Source: an uncultured Verrucomicrobiae bacterium (GTDB taxonomy: Bacteria; Chlamydiota; Chlamydiia; Chlamydiales; Rhabdochlamydiaceae). Taken from it: a stretch of DNA of 64,000 bases. Under the pieces are notes generated by a model that ran no database searches, had not been told where the DNA came from, and saw only the letters and a program-made list of their open reading frames with translations. Both the position numbers and the translations under genes were made by a program. Shown here piece by piece: positions 12,332 through 28,500 of this stretch; the first letter of the stretch is position 1; the number at the start of each line of letters is the position of its first letter. The stretch is from the NCBI GenBank assembly GCA_963813135.1, contig CAWEXY010000011.1, positions 128,001-192,000 of the forward strand. Direction: 5' to 3'.

Positions 12332-12532
12332 ATGATCGATTTCCCTTTGAAATTTCTTAAATGGTATGGCCTAATTCTTTTAGGCGTCCTCAAGTGGAGA
12401 ACTTTATTTTTTATTTGCAAAAACTGGAAAGATTACTTCGATTATCTTTCAGTTAAAAAAACACTTGTATATTCAGCAGCAATTGGCGTATTGATTCTAA
12501 TTGCTTATGGATTAGTAGAAATAACCAAATAA
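12332..12532 (+). CDS. Small AT-rich membrane protein
   Basis: 66 aa, two hydrophobic segments, followed by a terminator-like hairpin. Confidence 0.5.
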   Translation: MIDFPLKFLKWYGLILLGVLKWRTLFFICKNWKDYFDYLSVKKTLVYSAAIGVLILIAYGLVEITK

Positions 12533-12535
12533 AAA

Positions 12536-12680
12536 AGCGCCTAGGCGACCTGAGCGCTTCATTAGAAAAAAAATTACATGAAAAAGGCAATCCAGCACAG
12601 AACAAGGCCCCAAACGAGTGGGATAATTCCCATTCCTTTGAAGAATCCTTTATGCCCCATAGTGAGTTCGATCAGCATTT
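12536..12680. repeat. Direct repeat copy 1: terminator plus 3' end of the gene at 13986..14363
   Basis: Matches 13949-14092 with 3 substitutions and a 1-nt difference in an A run. Confidence 0.9.
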
Positions 12681-13922: not shown

Positions 13923-13948
13923 AGACTGTTTTACAAAAAATATATAAG

Positions 13949-14092
13949 AGCGCCCAGGCGACCTGAGCGCTTCATTAGAAAAAAATTACATGAAAAAGGC
14001 AACCCAGCACAGAACAAGGCCCCAAACGAGCGGGATAATTCCCATTCCTTTGAAGAATCCTTTATGCCCCATAGTGAGTTCGATCAGCATTT
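13949..14092. repeat. Direct repeat copy 2 (intact 3' end of membrane protein gene and terminator hairpin)
   Basis: AGCGCCCAGG-CGA-CCTGAGCGCT hairpin followed by the coding 3' end; matches 12536-12680. Confidence 0.9.
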
Positions 14093-23501: not shown

Positions 23502-23597
23502 CCTATGCAACATACTAAAAATTGGCACAAAAATCAAATTAAATTCCACCAACTATCGAGCATTTGTAGCTCAATGATCTTTAAGAGCCAATCGGTC

Positions 23598-23729
23598 GGC
23601 TGCCGCCGCCCGCCAAGACCCAAGGGGAAGGAGACAAAGAGGAGACCAGAAAGAGAAAAAAAATTCCTAAATCCCCCAATGGTCCAAGGGCCAATGCCCT
23701 AAAAGAACTTCCTAAGACCCCCAACGCCG
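23598..23729 (-). repeat. Conserved 3' block (last 10 codons plus ~100-nt non-coding element), copy 1; candidate DGR IMH region
   Basis: 132 bp identical to 26546-26677 except 2 positions. Confidence 0.9.
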
Positions 23730-26383
23730 TTGTAGAAGCTGTCGAAGTAGTAGTCGACGCTGAGACCAGCGGCCCCAAAACCCCCAACGCCCAATTGCAA
23801 ATCCTTATTATACTTCTCTTGACATCGTGTATACGTCCAGGGGCCTTCGCTATACAGCTTTGTTCCGGTGCGGACATGTTCCATTAATACAGCAACAGTC
23901 GCATCTAATACAGTCGGCAATTCGTATGGCGCTTTAATAAGTGCTTTCTGATCGCTGTAGCTTTTGTCTCGGCTCCCTTCAATGACATCTCGGGTTAGAA
24001 GCGCCCAATGCGACTTAGCAGCAGGTGCATCGGTATACTCTCCTAGATCGAAAGATAGATATTTCGTGGCTGTTCCTTGAAGGGGCTTTTCGATGAGCTC
24101 GCCTAGCGTTTTTAAGGTCAGGGGCTTTCCATTGACGGTTTTAGGAACGAGGACAAGGAGATGGGTCTCTTGCACTTTCTTTTGGGGCCAATAAGGACAA
24201 GAGCTTTGGAGAATGGCGTTGATATCGGCAGGAAGAGGCGGCTCAACTCCGACATCTCCAAAATACTTGGCCCACTCAGCCTTGCCAAAAGCGATAGAAG
24301 GCAGCACGGCTTTATTAGCAGGTGCCTTGGGGATGCTCTCTATGGGTCTGTCAGCAAGTGTCAATGTGTTTGATGGATAAGAAATTCTACTTTCAATAGG
24401 GAGTTCCTGCGCTTTATTGGGTTTAGGTGACTCGACTTGTTCGGCAGGAGGGACTGCTTGGGATGCTGCGGGTTGAGGGTTATCAGGGATGAACTTCCGA
24501 AGACCCCCAACACCGATCTCAATGTGGAGGCGGTTGATGATGGAGTCATCGAAGTTATTTTCGAAGACGTTGAGGCCTCTGGCCCCAAAGCTTCCAACAA
24601 GCAAATGATGATCAGTATTATCCTTTTCTTGACACTGCGTAAATGTCTTGGGGCTGTCGCCATACAGTTTTATCCCAGTCCGGACATGTTCCATTAATAT
24701 GGCAACAGTCGCATCTAAAACGGTGGGAACTTCATACGACGCTTTGGATTTGATAAAAGCTTGCTGATCGCTGTATTTTTTTCCGCTCCCTACTACGATA
24801 CCTCTGGTCATAAGCACCCAATGCGATTTAGCAGCGGGGGCTTCGTATCCTAGAGAGAAAATGGCATAACTCGCGGGTGTTCCTTCGAGGGGCCTTGGGA
24901 TAAGCTCGCCTAGCGTTTTTAGGGTCAGGGGCCTTCCATTGACGGTTTGAGGAACGAGAACGAGAAGATGGGTCTCTTGCACTTTCTTTTGGGGCCAATA
25001 AGGACAAGAGCTTTGGAGAATGGCGTTGATATCGGCAGGAAGAGGAGGCTCAACTCCGACATCTCCAAAATACTTGGCCCACTCAGCCTTGCCAAAAGCA
25101 ATAGAGGGAAGAGCAGCTTGGGGTGGAGGCGGTGCTTTCACGGGAACTACTGCAGGAGGTGGAGTCTGCGCCGATCCTTGGATTAGTTCGATGAGGTCTT
25201 TGGCTACTGGTTTACGAATTTTTTTATTTGCATCAAAGAGTTTCTGCGTTAATCGATAAACTTGTCGATCTTGCTCTGTTAGAGAAGATGCACTGTTGAG
25301 TTTTCTGGTTTGTTTTTCAAGGCTAGTGCGGAGGGATTCCATGTTCTGCACTTCTTCATTCTCTAAAATGCTGTAAATGTAGTCGAGAAGTGCATCTGGC
25401 AAAAGATTGTGGGAGCTGAGATCAGGAGTAGGTGTAGGAGGCATAGAAAGGGTTGCATTATTTGAGAGGTAAGGATCTTCCTTGCTTTCGGTAGTCGCTG
25501 AAAGAGTAGCAAAATTAGAAGGATAAGATCCATTGTTCTCGAATACAGGAAGAGGTTGATTAGGATCCGTGGTAAGACGAACTAGGTCTTCGGCTAGATT
25601 TTGGGCCTTGGGTCGCTGCGCAGGATCTTTCCAGCATTGCTTAATGATATCGGCAAAGGCTGGGGGTGTCTCAGATGGAATAGTTTCAGAAACGTTGTTC
25701 ATTTTCCATGCAAGGACGACCATTTCGTTAGCCGCGTTGCTATAGGGGGCTTTTCTCGCAGCAATCTCCCATAAAACCATCCCCATACTGTAAATATCGG
25801 TCTTAGTGCTAGCAGAGGCGTTTTGGCTGATTTGTTCGGGAGCCATCCAGCGCGGAGATCCCCCTTGACTGGTAAGATGGGTCTTTGTTTCATCCCGGAC
25901 TTTGGCAAGTCCAAAGTCGGTGATCTTAGCGGTATCATCTTTGGCGATCAGGATGTTTAAGCTTTTGAGGTCACGATGAACGATGTTGCGGCCGTGGAGA
26001 TAAGCAAGCCCTTTGCCGATGTCGGCTGCAATACTGTAGCGCCGGTTCCAGGGAAGATCTTCGGGCCTTTGTAAAAATTTATCAAGGGAGCCTTTTTCGA
26101 GATATTCCATGAGGATGGCGAACTTGCCTTCTTCTGCGCAAATGCCCAACATCTGAACGATATTGGGATGTTTGCACTGGGCCATGATTTGAGCTTCGTT
26201 CTTGAACATATTTAGAAATTGGTCGTCAATGATTTGCACGAGGAGTTCTTTGACGGCAATGGGAGTTGCTTGCCAATTCCCAAGGTAGACTTGGCCAAAG
26301 CCTCCTTTCCCAAGGAATTTTCCTTTGCTGAAATCCCTTGAGGGAATAGCTTCCAGTTGGACGATGATATTTGGAATGGCCAT
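23699..26383 (-). CDS. TKL-like Ser/Thr kinase fused to two copies of a GVGGLRKF-ending domain; candidate DGR target
   Basis: GKGGFG, IAVK, HRDLKSLN, DFG, WMAPE motifs; duplicated PSIAFGKAEWAKYFGDVG...GVGGLRKF domain; terminal run of NNC codons. Confidence 0.9.
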   Translation of the reverse strand: MAIPNIIVQLEAIPSRDFSKGKFLGKGGFGQVYLGNWQATPIAVKELLVQIIDDQFLNMFKNEAQIMAQCKHPNIVQMLGICAEEGKFAILMEYLEKGSLDKFLQRPEDLPWNRRYSIAADIGKGLAYLHGRNIVHRDLKSLNILIAKDDTAKITDFGLAKVRDETKTHLTSQGGSPRWMAPEQISQNASASTKTDIYSMGMVLWEIAARKAPYSNAANEMVVLAWKMNNVSETIPSETPPAFADIIKQCWKDPAQRPKAQNLAEDLVRLTTDPNQPLPVFENNGSYPSNFATLSATTESKEDPYLSNNATLSMPPTPTPDLSSHNLLPDALLDYIYSILENEEVQNMESLRTSLEKQTRKLNSASSLTEQDRQVYRLTQKLFDANKKIRKPVAKDLIELIQGSAQTPPPAVVPVKAPPPPQAALPSIAFGKAEWAKYFGDVGVEPPLPADINAILQSSCPYWPQKKVQETHLLVLVPQTVNGRPLTLKTLGELIPRPLEGTPASYAIFSLGYEAPAAKSHWVLMTRGIVVGSGKKYSDQQAFIKSKASYEVPTVLDATVAILMEHVRTGIKLYGDSPKTFTQCQEKDNTDHHLLVGSFGARGLNVFENNFDDSIINRLHIEIGVGGLRKFIPDNPQPAASQAVPPAEQVESPKPNKAQELPIESRISYPSNTLTLADRPIESIPKAPANKAVLPSIAFGKAEWAKYFGDVGVEPPLPADINAILQSSCPYWPQKKVQETHLLVLVPKTVNGKPLTLKTLGELIEKPLQGTATKYLSFDLGEYTDAPAAKSHWALLTRDVIEGSRDKSYSDQKALIKAPYELPTVLDATVAVLMEHVRTGTKLYSEGPWTYTRCQEKYNKDLQLGVGGFGAAGLSVDYYFDSFYNGVGGLRKFF
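23729..23761 (-). other. Candidate DGR variable region VR1
   Basis: Sense codons agc gtc gac tac tac ttc gac agc ttc tac aac: 11 of 11 end in C. Confidence 0.7.
24515..24571 (-). other. Decayed internal variable-region copy
   Basis: 19 codons at the same domain position, 14 ending in C; lacks the downstream element. Confidence 0.6.
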
Positions 26384-26545
26384 AACTGCATCTCCGTTGG
26401 TTAATCAGTATGGAGATGATAAACGAAGGGGCCTTTTAATGAAAAAATAAATGATGGGTGCCCAGATCGATGATTTTATCTCCCCTTCAAAAAATGAAAA
26501 CTTCATGCATGAGATTTTAGAGCTGGTTGCAAAATTCCACCGGCT

Positions 26546-26677
26546 GGCTGCCGCCGCCCGCCAAGACCCAAGGGGAAGGAGACAAAGAGGAGACCAGAAA
26601 GAGAAAAAAAATTCCGAACTCCCCCAATGGTCCAAGGGCCAATGCCCTAAAAGAACTTCCTAAGACCCCCAACGCCG
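26546..26677 (-). repeat. Conserved 3' block, copy 2; candidate DGR IMH region
   Basis: 132 bp matching 23598-23729 with 2 mismatches. Confidence 0.9.
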
Positions 26678-28500
26678 CAGTTGACGAAGTCGTAGCCGGC
26701 GTGGACGTAGCCGGAGTGGAAGTTGTCGATAGAGAGACCAGCGGACCCACACCACCCAACAGCCAATTGCTCATTCTTATTAAACCTTTCTTGACACCGT
26801 GTATACCTCCTCGCACAGAAGTCGCTATTGAGCTCGTTTCCGCGCACATGTTCCATTAATATAGCAACGGTCGCATCCAATATAGTTGGCACTTCATAGC
26901 GCAATTTAACCACTGGCACTTCATGCTCATTAATAAGCGCTTTCTGATCGCTGTAGTTTTTGTTTAGGCTTCCTTCAATGACATCACGGGTTAGAAGCGC
27001 CCAGTGCGACCTAGCAGCGGGTGCATCAGTATACTCACCAAAGTCAAAAGGGTTTGGGTCACGACGCTGCAAGTGCCAATTATCAGGGATTAAATTATGG
27101 TACCTTAAAAGGTTATATCGTTCATACCTTAAATCGCGATATTGTGTAGGCCTTCCTTGGCGGGGCTTTAAGATGAGCTTGCCGAGCGTTTTTAGGGTCA
27201 GGGGCTCTCCATTCACCATTTGAGGAACCAGAACGAGGAGATGAGTCTCTTGTACTTTCTTACGAGGCCAAAATGGGCAGGGAGCTGCCAAGATAGCGTT
27301 GATAGCGCCAGGAAGTGGAGGTTCTACCCCCACATCTCCAAAATATTTGGCCCACTCTGCCTTGCCAAAAGCGATCGAGGGCAGCACGGCTTTATTAGCA
27401 GGTGTTTTGGGGATGCTCTCTATGGGTCTGTCAGCAAATGTTGTTGTGTTGGATGGATAAGAAAGCACACTTTCAGTAGGGAGTTCCATTGGCTTGTTGG
27501 GTTGGGCAGGTTCAGCTTTATTGAGACGAGCTGGGGGCAAAGATTTTGTGGCAAGCGCCATTGCGTTTGATAGATAAGAAATTCTACTTTCACTAGGAAG
27601 CTCTAGCGCTTTATTGGGTTGGGCAGGAGATACACTCGCGGCTATTGGATGGTCGAGGTTTTGGTGTTTGGCTCTTTCCTGGAGCTGGTTTAATTCTAAA
27701 GCTATTGTTTTGGCGAGAGGACGCTCGAGGGGAAGTTTCCAGCATTTTTGTATGAGGGCTCCATATTCTTCGGGACAATCAGAGGGGATGGTTTCATGGG
27801 TGTTGTTCATTTTAGCTGCTATGACCATGTATACGTTGATGGCGTGGCTATAGGGTGCCCTGCGGGCGGCGATTTCCCAGAGGATCATGCCGAAGCTGTA
27901 GATGTCGGTAGCAAAACTAGCTGGGGCATTTTGGGTAAAATGTTCGGGAGCCATCCAACAAGGAGATCCTGCGAGCTGATTGGTGGTCATTTGGGTGCTG
28001 GTCTCGGATCTGATTTTGGCGAGGCCAAAATCGGAGATCTTGGCGATATCTTTGGCGAGGAGGATGTTGTGGCTTTTGAGGTCGCAGTGGATGACTTTTT
28101 GGCTATGGAGGTACAAAAGTCCTTTTCCTATGCCGGCAGCGATAGTAAAACGGCGGGTCCATTCTAAGGAAATATCTTTATTCTTTAGTATGCCGTAGAG
28201 GGAGCCTTCTTCGAGATATTCCATGATGAGGGCAAATTTTCCTTCTTCTAAACACAGACCAAATAATCTGACGATATTGGGATGTTGGCACCCGGCCATG
28301 AGCTCGGCTTCGCTGCGGAATATTTTCAAAAAGTCATTGGTCATTGACTGAACTAAGAGTTCTTTCACGGCGACAGGGGTGGTTATCTGCCATTTGCCAA
28401 AATAGACTTTCCCAAATCCCCCCTGGCCTAACTCTCTTTCTTTGGTGAAGTCATCCGATGGTATAGTGGGAAGCTTGGGCGCGATGCTGGGAATGGCCAT
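26647..28500 (-). CDS. TKL-like Ser/Thr kinase (non-RD) fused to one GVGGLRKF-ending domain; candidate DGR target
   Basis: GQGGFG, VAVK, HCDLKSHN, DFG, WMAPE motifs; same C-terminal domain; terminal NNC run. Confidence 0.9.
   Translation of the reverse strand: MAIPSIAPKLPTIPSDDFTKERELGQGGFGKVYFGKWQITTPVAVKELLVQSMTNDFLKIFRSEAELMAGCQHPNIVRLFGLCLEEGKFALIMEYLEEGSLYGILKNKDISLEWTRRFTIAAGIGKGLLYLHSQKVIHCDLKSHNILLAKDIAKISDFGLAKIRSETSTQMTTNQLAGSPCWMAPEHFTQNAPASFATDIYSFGMILWEIAARRAPYSHAINVYMVIAAKMNNTHETIPSDCPEEYGALIQKCWKLPLERPLAKTIALELNQLQERAKHQNLDHPIAASVSPAQPNKALELPSESRISYLSNAMALATKSLPPARLNKAEPAQPNKPMELPTESVLSYPSNTTTFADRPIESIPKTPANKAVLPSIAFGKAEWAKYFGDVGVEPPLPGAINAILAAPCPFWPRKKVQETHLLVLVPQMVNGEPLTLKTLGKLILKPRQGRPTQYRDLRYERYNLLRYHNLIPDNWHLQRRDPNPFDFGEYTDAPAARSHWALLTRDVIEGSLNKNYSDQKALINEHEVPVVKLRYEVPTILDATVAILMEHVRGNELNSDFCARRYTRCQERFNKNEQLAVGWCGSAGLSIDNFHSGYVHAGYDFVNCGVGGLRKFF
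26677..26733 (-). other. Candidate DGR variable region VR2
   Basis: Sense codons tct atc gac aac ttc cac tcc ggc tac gtc cac gcc ggc tac gac ttc gtc aac tgc: 18 of 19 end in C. Confidence 0.7.

Follow-up and report, generated by a model that had tools for sequence, protein, structure and literature searches.

A periodic repeat behind kinase genes of a rhabdochlamydial bacterium as a probable target-side flank of DGRs

Two kinase genes and the element behind them

The window, by which we mean the whole stretch of 64,000 nucleotides analysed here (G000:C11:128001-192000, G000 being this genome, 1.83 Mb in size and 82% complete), contains two kinase genes that are both predicted to end in a domain of C-type-lectin fold (CLec) with a loop of NNC codons (Table 1). 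Such codons make up 11/11 and 18/19 positions of the terminal loops, against a background of 33%. In gene 1 the variable region (VR) lies in the last CLec domain, and the internal one is a former target. The C-terminal domain, of about 200 aa, matched no family in Pfam or NCBIfam. Its model reaches a pLDDT of 95.8 with an alignment of 55 sequences, versus 36 when predicted from the single sequence, and the leading fold matches are C-type-lectin/FGE-type folds with Z of 6-7.4, among them TvpA (Z 7.3) and Mtd (Z 6.1), which are variable proteins of diversity-generating retroelements (DGRs), and no Z value reaches 8; a Foldseek search with the model of the terminal domain returned nothing at E<=0.001. 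The genome holds about ten copies of the domain. Its nearest language-model clusters come mostly from Minisyncoccota, which we take as a lead on its origin only.

An earlier note on this DNA had pointed to some 100 non-coding nucleotides that are almost the same after both stop codons. The comparison of 23598-23698 with 26546-26646 confirmed it: over 101 nt there are two mismatches, at 23668 and 23671 in copy 1, and upstream the copies stay identical for another 31 nt, counted from the first base of the element, past the stop codon and up to 23729. The tract of 62 nt without adenine is also real (sense strand, 23602-23663), as is the G/C run. The tract is unusual rather than unique, since the genome (1.83 Mb, both strands) has eight adenine-free runs of at least 62 nt and 73 of at least 40 nt. 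Searching the genome with the element, as the note had proposed, recovered further copies at C15:21058-20958 (95%), C11:236284-236379 (83%) and C15:18919 (partial), plus a diverged one on C23, every one of them after a gene with the same terminal domain. The possibility that only the two window copies exist can thus be set aside. At the mismatch positions, window copy 1 has its allele in common with C15:21059 and C11:236279, and copy 2 has its allele in common with C15:18920. The sequence that copy 2 has in common with C15:21059 goes well beyond the element.

Read from the stop codon outwards, the element consists of a three-unit repeat core, a pyrimidine-rich spacer whose length and A content differ between lineages, and a hairpin (Table 1). 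The G/C run, formerly proposed as a targeting signal, is the 5' arm and loop of this decayed GGCA-loop hairpin and no equivalent of the (GC)14 of BPP-1. The hairpin keeps 7/8 pairs in copy 1 and 6/8 in copy 2, where the predicted minimum (-6.4 kcal/mol) is in another register, and it is perfect at C15:18920 (10 bp, GGGA loop); the loops across copies are GGCA, GATA and GGGA. A second, small hairpin had been noticed behind copy 1. It is there, but in copy 1 only, it overlaps the better-conserved GRNA hairpin, and it is probably due to chance. An intrinsic terminator was considered and rejected: no site with a GC hairpin followed by a T run was called at either copy on either strand, and the T-run precedes the hairpin.

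Elsewhere in the window, a duplication of about 150 nt (12529-12680 and 13942-14092, 93-98% identity, 1412 nt apart) takes in sequence downstream of a small membrane-protein ORF together with the 3' end of that ORF; it is unrelated to the element.

Table 1. Features of the two kinase genes and of the sequence behind them (window positions)
Feature	Position	Strand	Basis
Gene 1, 894 aa: Tyr/Ser-Thr-type kinase, linker, two predicted CLec domains	23699..26383	-	ORF; PF07714 E 3e-61; fold
Gene 2, 617 aa: kinase and one predicted CLec domain with variable region	26647..28500	-	
VR1 5' anchor, codons V-G-G-F-G-A-A-G-L; homology to the 5' part of TRs in relatives	23762..23788	-	
VR1 variable loop, 11 codons, all NNC	23729..23761	-	
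VR1 3' anchor, IMH-equivalent, end of TR homology	23709..23728	-	
VR2 5' anchor, 4 substitutions versus paralog consensus	26734..26760	-	
VR2 variable loop, 19 codons, 18 NNC	26677..26733	-	
VR2 3' anchor, IMH-equivalent, identical to copy 1	26657..26676	-	
Internal CLec domain of gene 1: decayed loop, 14/19 NNC, no element behind	24488..25105	-	
Conserved core, copy 1: three (C/A)TTG(G/A) units, 7-8-nt spacing	23676..23698	-	unit comparison across targets
Three-unit repeat core, copy 2	26624..26646	-	
Pyrimidine-rich spacer, copy 1: bulk of the A-free tract, with two more TTGG units	23613..23663	-	
Pyrimidine-rich spacer, copy 2	26561..26611	-	
Decayed hairpin, copy 1: 8-bp GC stem, one mismatch, GGCA (GRNA) loop; includes the G/C run	23593..23612	-	-9.4 kcal/mol, DNA parameters
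More decayed hairpin, copy 2: 6/8 pairs in GGCA register	26541..26560	-	
Small hairpin, copy 1 only, shares bases with the GRNA hairpin	23586..23601	-	

Relatives carry complete cassettes, and their templates stop short of the element

Related genomes contain the machinery that would act on such genes. A reverse transcriptase (RT) is found at E<=1e-60 in 15 of 300 genomes of the phylum, from seven families, and Avd in 11 of 128 relatives of the family (eight over the cut-off). In G001, a genome of the same genus, a full cassette adjoins two targets, with Avd (NF033474) over the cut-off and an RT of PF00078; the template (TR) and the RT are on one strand and avd is antisense between them. At L048:7661-8300 of G001, avd and RT stand head-to-head with an overlap of 17 bp. 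The complete cassettes of the relatives (TR, Avd, RT) rewrite the CLec loop at template adenines: under neutral scoring, TR/VR mismatches affect 7/18 positions with A in the TR versus 1/65 others in G001, and 13/19 versus 2/64 in G009, and in total, over 21 TR-matched targets, a set that was defined by its low non-A rate and aligned with a scoring that favoured A mismatches, 185/399 versus 35/1381. Together with the indirect evidence from this genome, its NNC loops and its homogenised anchors (see below), this adenine-directed variation supports the claim that both kinase genes are DGR targets.

Upstream of the TR, about 200 nt are predicted to form a conserved structured non-coding RNA. The predicted structure of the RNA around the TR is conserved over nine genomes, with compensatory changes in 31/92 pairs, and Rfam gave no match in three cassette loci. 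We also observed that a genome of the same genus is labelled Verrucomicrobia at its source and that its RT goes under the name of a group II intron RT. Such labels may be part of the reason for these DGRs having been overlooked.

The TRs of the relatives allow us to place the limit of the copied region. In 16 of them the homology reaches only as far as the Arg-Lys codons of GLRKF, which corresponds to 9 nt before the stop in this genome, and from there 37/37 TR-matched targets go on with G, nearly always as GTTC, while the 16 TRs go on with A or C into a hairpin of their own. The IMH-equivalent is therefore 23709-23728, within the gene; the element behind the stop lies beyond what is copied and is no IMH. 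The earlier note had read it as the IMH with its G/C run, copied from the template and avoiding adenine as a protection against mutagenesis, and had expected one copy of it in the TR. The adenine-free tract and the GC run do exist, next to a true VR, but no counterpart of the element follows any of the 16 TRs, and a tract that is not templated needs no protection from the RT. Nor are the flanks of relatives free of adenine, the longest A-free run behind their 37 TR-matched targets being 10-44 nt (median 21). The two mismatches, supposed to sit at template adenines, lie outside the TR and their alleles are common to other paralogs. We consider this reading close to untenable.

A 7-8-nt-periodic array follows targets that match their template

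The conserved core of the flank is a short repeat of 7-8 bases and not the adenine-free tract. It may resemble the short tandem heptamer repeats of cyanobacteria; no pertinent literature was found on heptamer repeats in combination with four-helix-bundle/Avd genes. We scored the array as at least two (C/A)TTG(G/A) units in the first 50 nt; 82 of 122 intervals between units are of 7 or 8 nt. In nine genomes, the array is present behind 21/21 TR-matched targets versus 1/23 diverged copies. These counts have to be read knowing that the motif and the threshold of 8% mismatches were chosen after viewing the data of family f1, that a low non-A rate follows from the 8% cut itself, and that the alignments, both here and in the hold-out described next, penalised mismatches at TR adenines less; the distribution of mismatches among copies does have a gap between 8% and 17%. 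G047 and G020, two of the 11 genomes with Avd, are omitted from the count since neither yielded a TR of the same type. A hold-out of six genomes from other families, which had no part in the definition of the motif, gave the array behind 14/16 TR-matched targets, 3/3 intermediate copies and 2/24 diverged ones. It comprises six of ten genomes: no TR was found in the loci of G212, G349 and G327, and in G362 a TR was found and the targets were left out; for G193 it covers 10 loci of 38 matches plus the RT locus. The exceptions are two TR-matched targets of the hold-out with fewer than two strict units and three diverged copies that retain the array. Paralogs and genomes are kin and the counts are not independent, so that any p-value for the array would overstate its significance.

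As to controls, the array is behind 0/16 TRs, and 333 of 20000 random windows of 50 nt have at least two units. Behind 1524 long ORFs of this genome, two units occur in 37 cases and three or more in six, five of these six being CLec-domain genes. The three-unit pattern, which was derived from the very copies in the window, occurs there twice, once per copy, versus 0.01 expected, and none of 100 shuffles reached two. The hairpin is far less constant: a strong one is found behind only 5/21 TR-matched targets, the six TR-matched targets of the near-complete G111 have none within 115 nt, and its distance from the IMH is 95 nt in the window copies and 55-72 nt in G001 and G009.

These data suggest that the element is, with good probability, a DNA-level flank on the target side of a DGR, outside the copied region, which marks usable paralogs. 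Of the earlier idea of a cis element that makes these genes targets, the tie to target status stands, as the array goes with a TR match, and the identification with the IMH falls. It could be argued that the genes are DGR targets whose flank has no role in homing and is simply carried along with the domain's 3' end upon duplication, the 98% identity of the two copies being the product of recent gene conversion. Flanks have clearly been copied along with the domain, RT C-terminal codons ride behind remote targets in G001 and on C23 of this genome, copy 2 and C15:21059 are alike far past the element, and conversion probably explains the exact 99/101 identity. Yet the periodic units are retained in families with RTs just 54-70% identical to that of G001, even as the letters change from unit to unit and the distal flank is replaced, and within genomes the array is behind only 1/15 older terminal paralogs. 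Mere co-inheritance is hence an improbable account of the array. We give slightly less credit to an RNA-level 3' signal of the gene family (a Rho-loading tract, a stability element or a site for protein binding on the mRNA) that would mark the selected genes incidentally. An unstructured pyrimidine-rich tract followed by a GC hairpin is indeed strand-specific, as would suit such a signal, but neither copy has a terminator-like site, most intact paralogs whose VR has diverged are without the array, and the six targets of G111 have no pyrimidine tract.

Returning to the target-side flank, a hint that its proximal part suffices comes from the two targets of G262 with a replaced distal flank, which keep the match to their TR (1 and 3 mismatches over 57 non-A positions). 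At L128 and L137 (G262) and L139 (G283), in two families, the same foreign sequence starts within or just after the array and takes the place of the distal flank.

A second type of flank was observed at C11:235163 (+) and L059:7189 (G009), with a hairpin of 6 bp and a GACAA loop directly after the stop. The sequence behind this hairpin is similar in the two genera and changes in the stem preserve pairing. These copies differ in their IMH and lack the array, even though C11:235163 arose recently by tandem duplication of a gene that bears the element (5/82 synonymous differences).

State of the system in this genome

Neither RT, Avd nor TR was found in this 82%-complete genome using Pfam, NCBIfam, tblastn, blastn and a profile of the relatives' RTs. 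Contigs from four sequencing runs (of six known, with shares of 0.05-0.11), short and of low depth, yielded no TR. A scan of metagenomes for the IMH pattern gave two loci, apparently the same target as in G024, and no TR of this organism; a scan of genome contigs gave two loci, one of them chlamydial. Viral contigs contained three distant RTs and no relatives of the domain, and their six pattern matches are due to chance, inside an unrelated gene.

The targets themselves speak of past activity. Among the five element-bearing copies with a common IMH, synonymous differences affect 191/679 codon pairs (28%) upstream and 8/141 (6%) in the anchors, the pairs not being independent of one another. 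The anchors have thus been homogenised, which implies that a common template rewrote them recently, after the copies had diverged. At C23:848-865, right behind the C23 target and where relatives have the end of their RT, there is a six-codon relic of an RT C-terminus, the sole such motif in six frames. The remote targets of G001 (L049 and L050) bear the same relic while the cassette of that genome is intact, so the relic shows an origin from a cassette-linked gene rather than a loss. The cassette of this organism was either lost recently or is unassembled, and the window copies may be orphans; that a DGR is currently active here we would rather doubt than affirm.

At C15:21059-23012, an element-bearing paralog is frameshifted and has nonetheless near-consensus anchors and a loop with 11/11 NNC codons.

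Discussion

The mechanism that we propose would start with a remote cassette, made of a structured RNA with the TR, an antisense avd and the RT, producing cDNA mutated at template adenines. This cDNA would pair with the anchors of a variable region and rewrite the loop at the tip of the CLec domain, and the flank would mark which paralogs serve as targets. Its conserved part would be the array of (C/A)TTG(G/A) units with a period of 7-8 nt, starting some 7-19 nt from the IMH, while the pyrimidine spacer and the distal GC hairpin would be accessory and variable between lineages. Judging by the co-occurrence of array and TR match, on which the link with homing rests, the array would act in homing, most likely as a protein-binding site or as a tract that holds the strand open, either replacing a cruciform or beside it.

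In the BPP-1 DGR, targeting involves (GC)14, the IMH and a hairpin/cruciform, with stems of 7-10 bp, GRNA loops and a distance of 4-34 bp from the VR, according to the available text of Guo 2011 (PMC3240598). The BPP-1 system has been reconstituted in laboratory E. coli (PMC12875486, available text). Features in common here are the GC-rich 3' end of the VR that is homologous to the TR, the fixed VR/TR divergence just after it and, in this genome's copies, a downstream hairpin with GC stem and GRNA loop. Unlike in BPP-1, the hairpin lies at 95 nt from the IMH instead of 4-34 bp, is decayed in both window copies and is strong in just the minority of relatives' targets counted above; the gap is filled by the periodic TTG(G/A) array, which is better conserved than the hairpin and goes unmentioned in the available text of PMC3240598. 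A downstream inverted repeat is reported for only 34% of 372 curated DGRs in the available text of Wu 2018 (PMC5758913).

The closest parallel in protein architecture comes from cyanobacterial DGRs, where kinase-CLec proteins and remote targets have been described and cis signals were proposed without being defined, as far as the available text of Vallota-Eastman 2020 goes (PMC7517822). Here too a kinase is joined to a C-terminal CLec domain, paralogs are many, and a single cassette has remote targets. The differences are the host, a member of the Chlamydiae with type III secretion, the CLec family, which has no Pfam or NCBIfam match, and the U-box, F-box-like and PARP partners. The clade-5 DGRs of multicellular bacteria, proposed as sensors in conflict systems and with tandem repeats that are MITE-like (Dore 2024, PMC10907252, available text), are similar in the shuffling of domains combined with hypermutation of the CLec tip, in their duplicated targets and in the degraded parts of cassettes; the string 'chlamyd' is absent from that available text. 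Elsewhere, one available passage of PMC3521204 gives the Chlamydiae/Verrucomicrobia group 0.6% of hits with the organism unnamed, and in the 13 supplements of PMC8144416 the matches listed for 'Chlamyd' were only Chlamydomonas rows (2 of 5 listed in one file); since the taxonomy seen there is pooled as PVC, chlamydial RTs may be present without being named. Our literature search, which covered few subscription papers, returned no description of chlamydial DGRs or of a TTG(G/A) array.

For the question of how DGRs recognize their targets, this lineage offers a short candidate signal by which live paralogs can be told from retired ones and which lends itself to a deletion test. Moreover, DGRs are seen here in Chlamydiae, which are obligate intracellular bacteria, and on proteins that resemble effectors. 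Among 12 proteins of relatives (from 19 listed), the partner domains are U-box/RING in four, PARP in two, F-box-like in one, NACHT in one and a weak LRR in one, with none in three; homologs in protein collections add further F-box, U-box and PARP cases. With U-box, F-box-like and PARP domains as partners, the targets look like host-directed effectors. This genome encodes SctU and SctV of type III secretion and a nucleotide transporter, and we infer that the target proteins would be secreted and that the loop would pick host substrates.

Chlamydial F-box and U-box families with repeat domains, NEX and PEX, have been reported as type III substrates (Domman 2014, PMC4209131, available text). They share with our targets the combination of ubiquitination modules with a C-terminal target-binding domain and an expansion through gene birth and death. 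Their binding parts are LRR, TPR and ankyrin repeats, whereas here it is a CLec domain mutated by a DGR, and the terms 'reverse transcriptase' and 'lectin' do not appear in the available text of PMC4209131; known effector families obtain their specificity from repeat domains. A bolder proposal would be that environmental Chlamydiae have a DGR lineage in which targets are licensed in cis by a kind of signal not described so far. A protein would read the 7-8-nt-periodic TTG(G/A) array in place of the GRNA cruciform, and one cassette could thereby hypermutate the tips with which many enzymes directed at the host (kinases, E3 ligases, PARP-like proteins) bind their substrates. In this full form the proposal is speculative and, in our opinion, rather unlikely; if true, it would represent a programmed retargeting of effectors inside eukaryotic hosts.

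The domain can also occur in much larger proteins. Many of its 38 matches in G193 are tandem domains within proteins of 1000-2300 aa, and a close TR match was seen in 1 of the 18 copies scored there.
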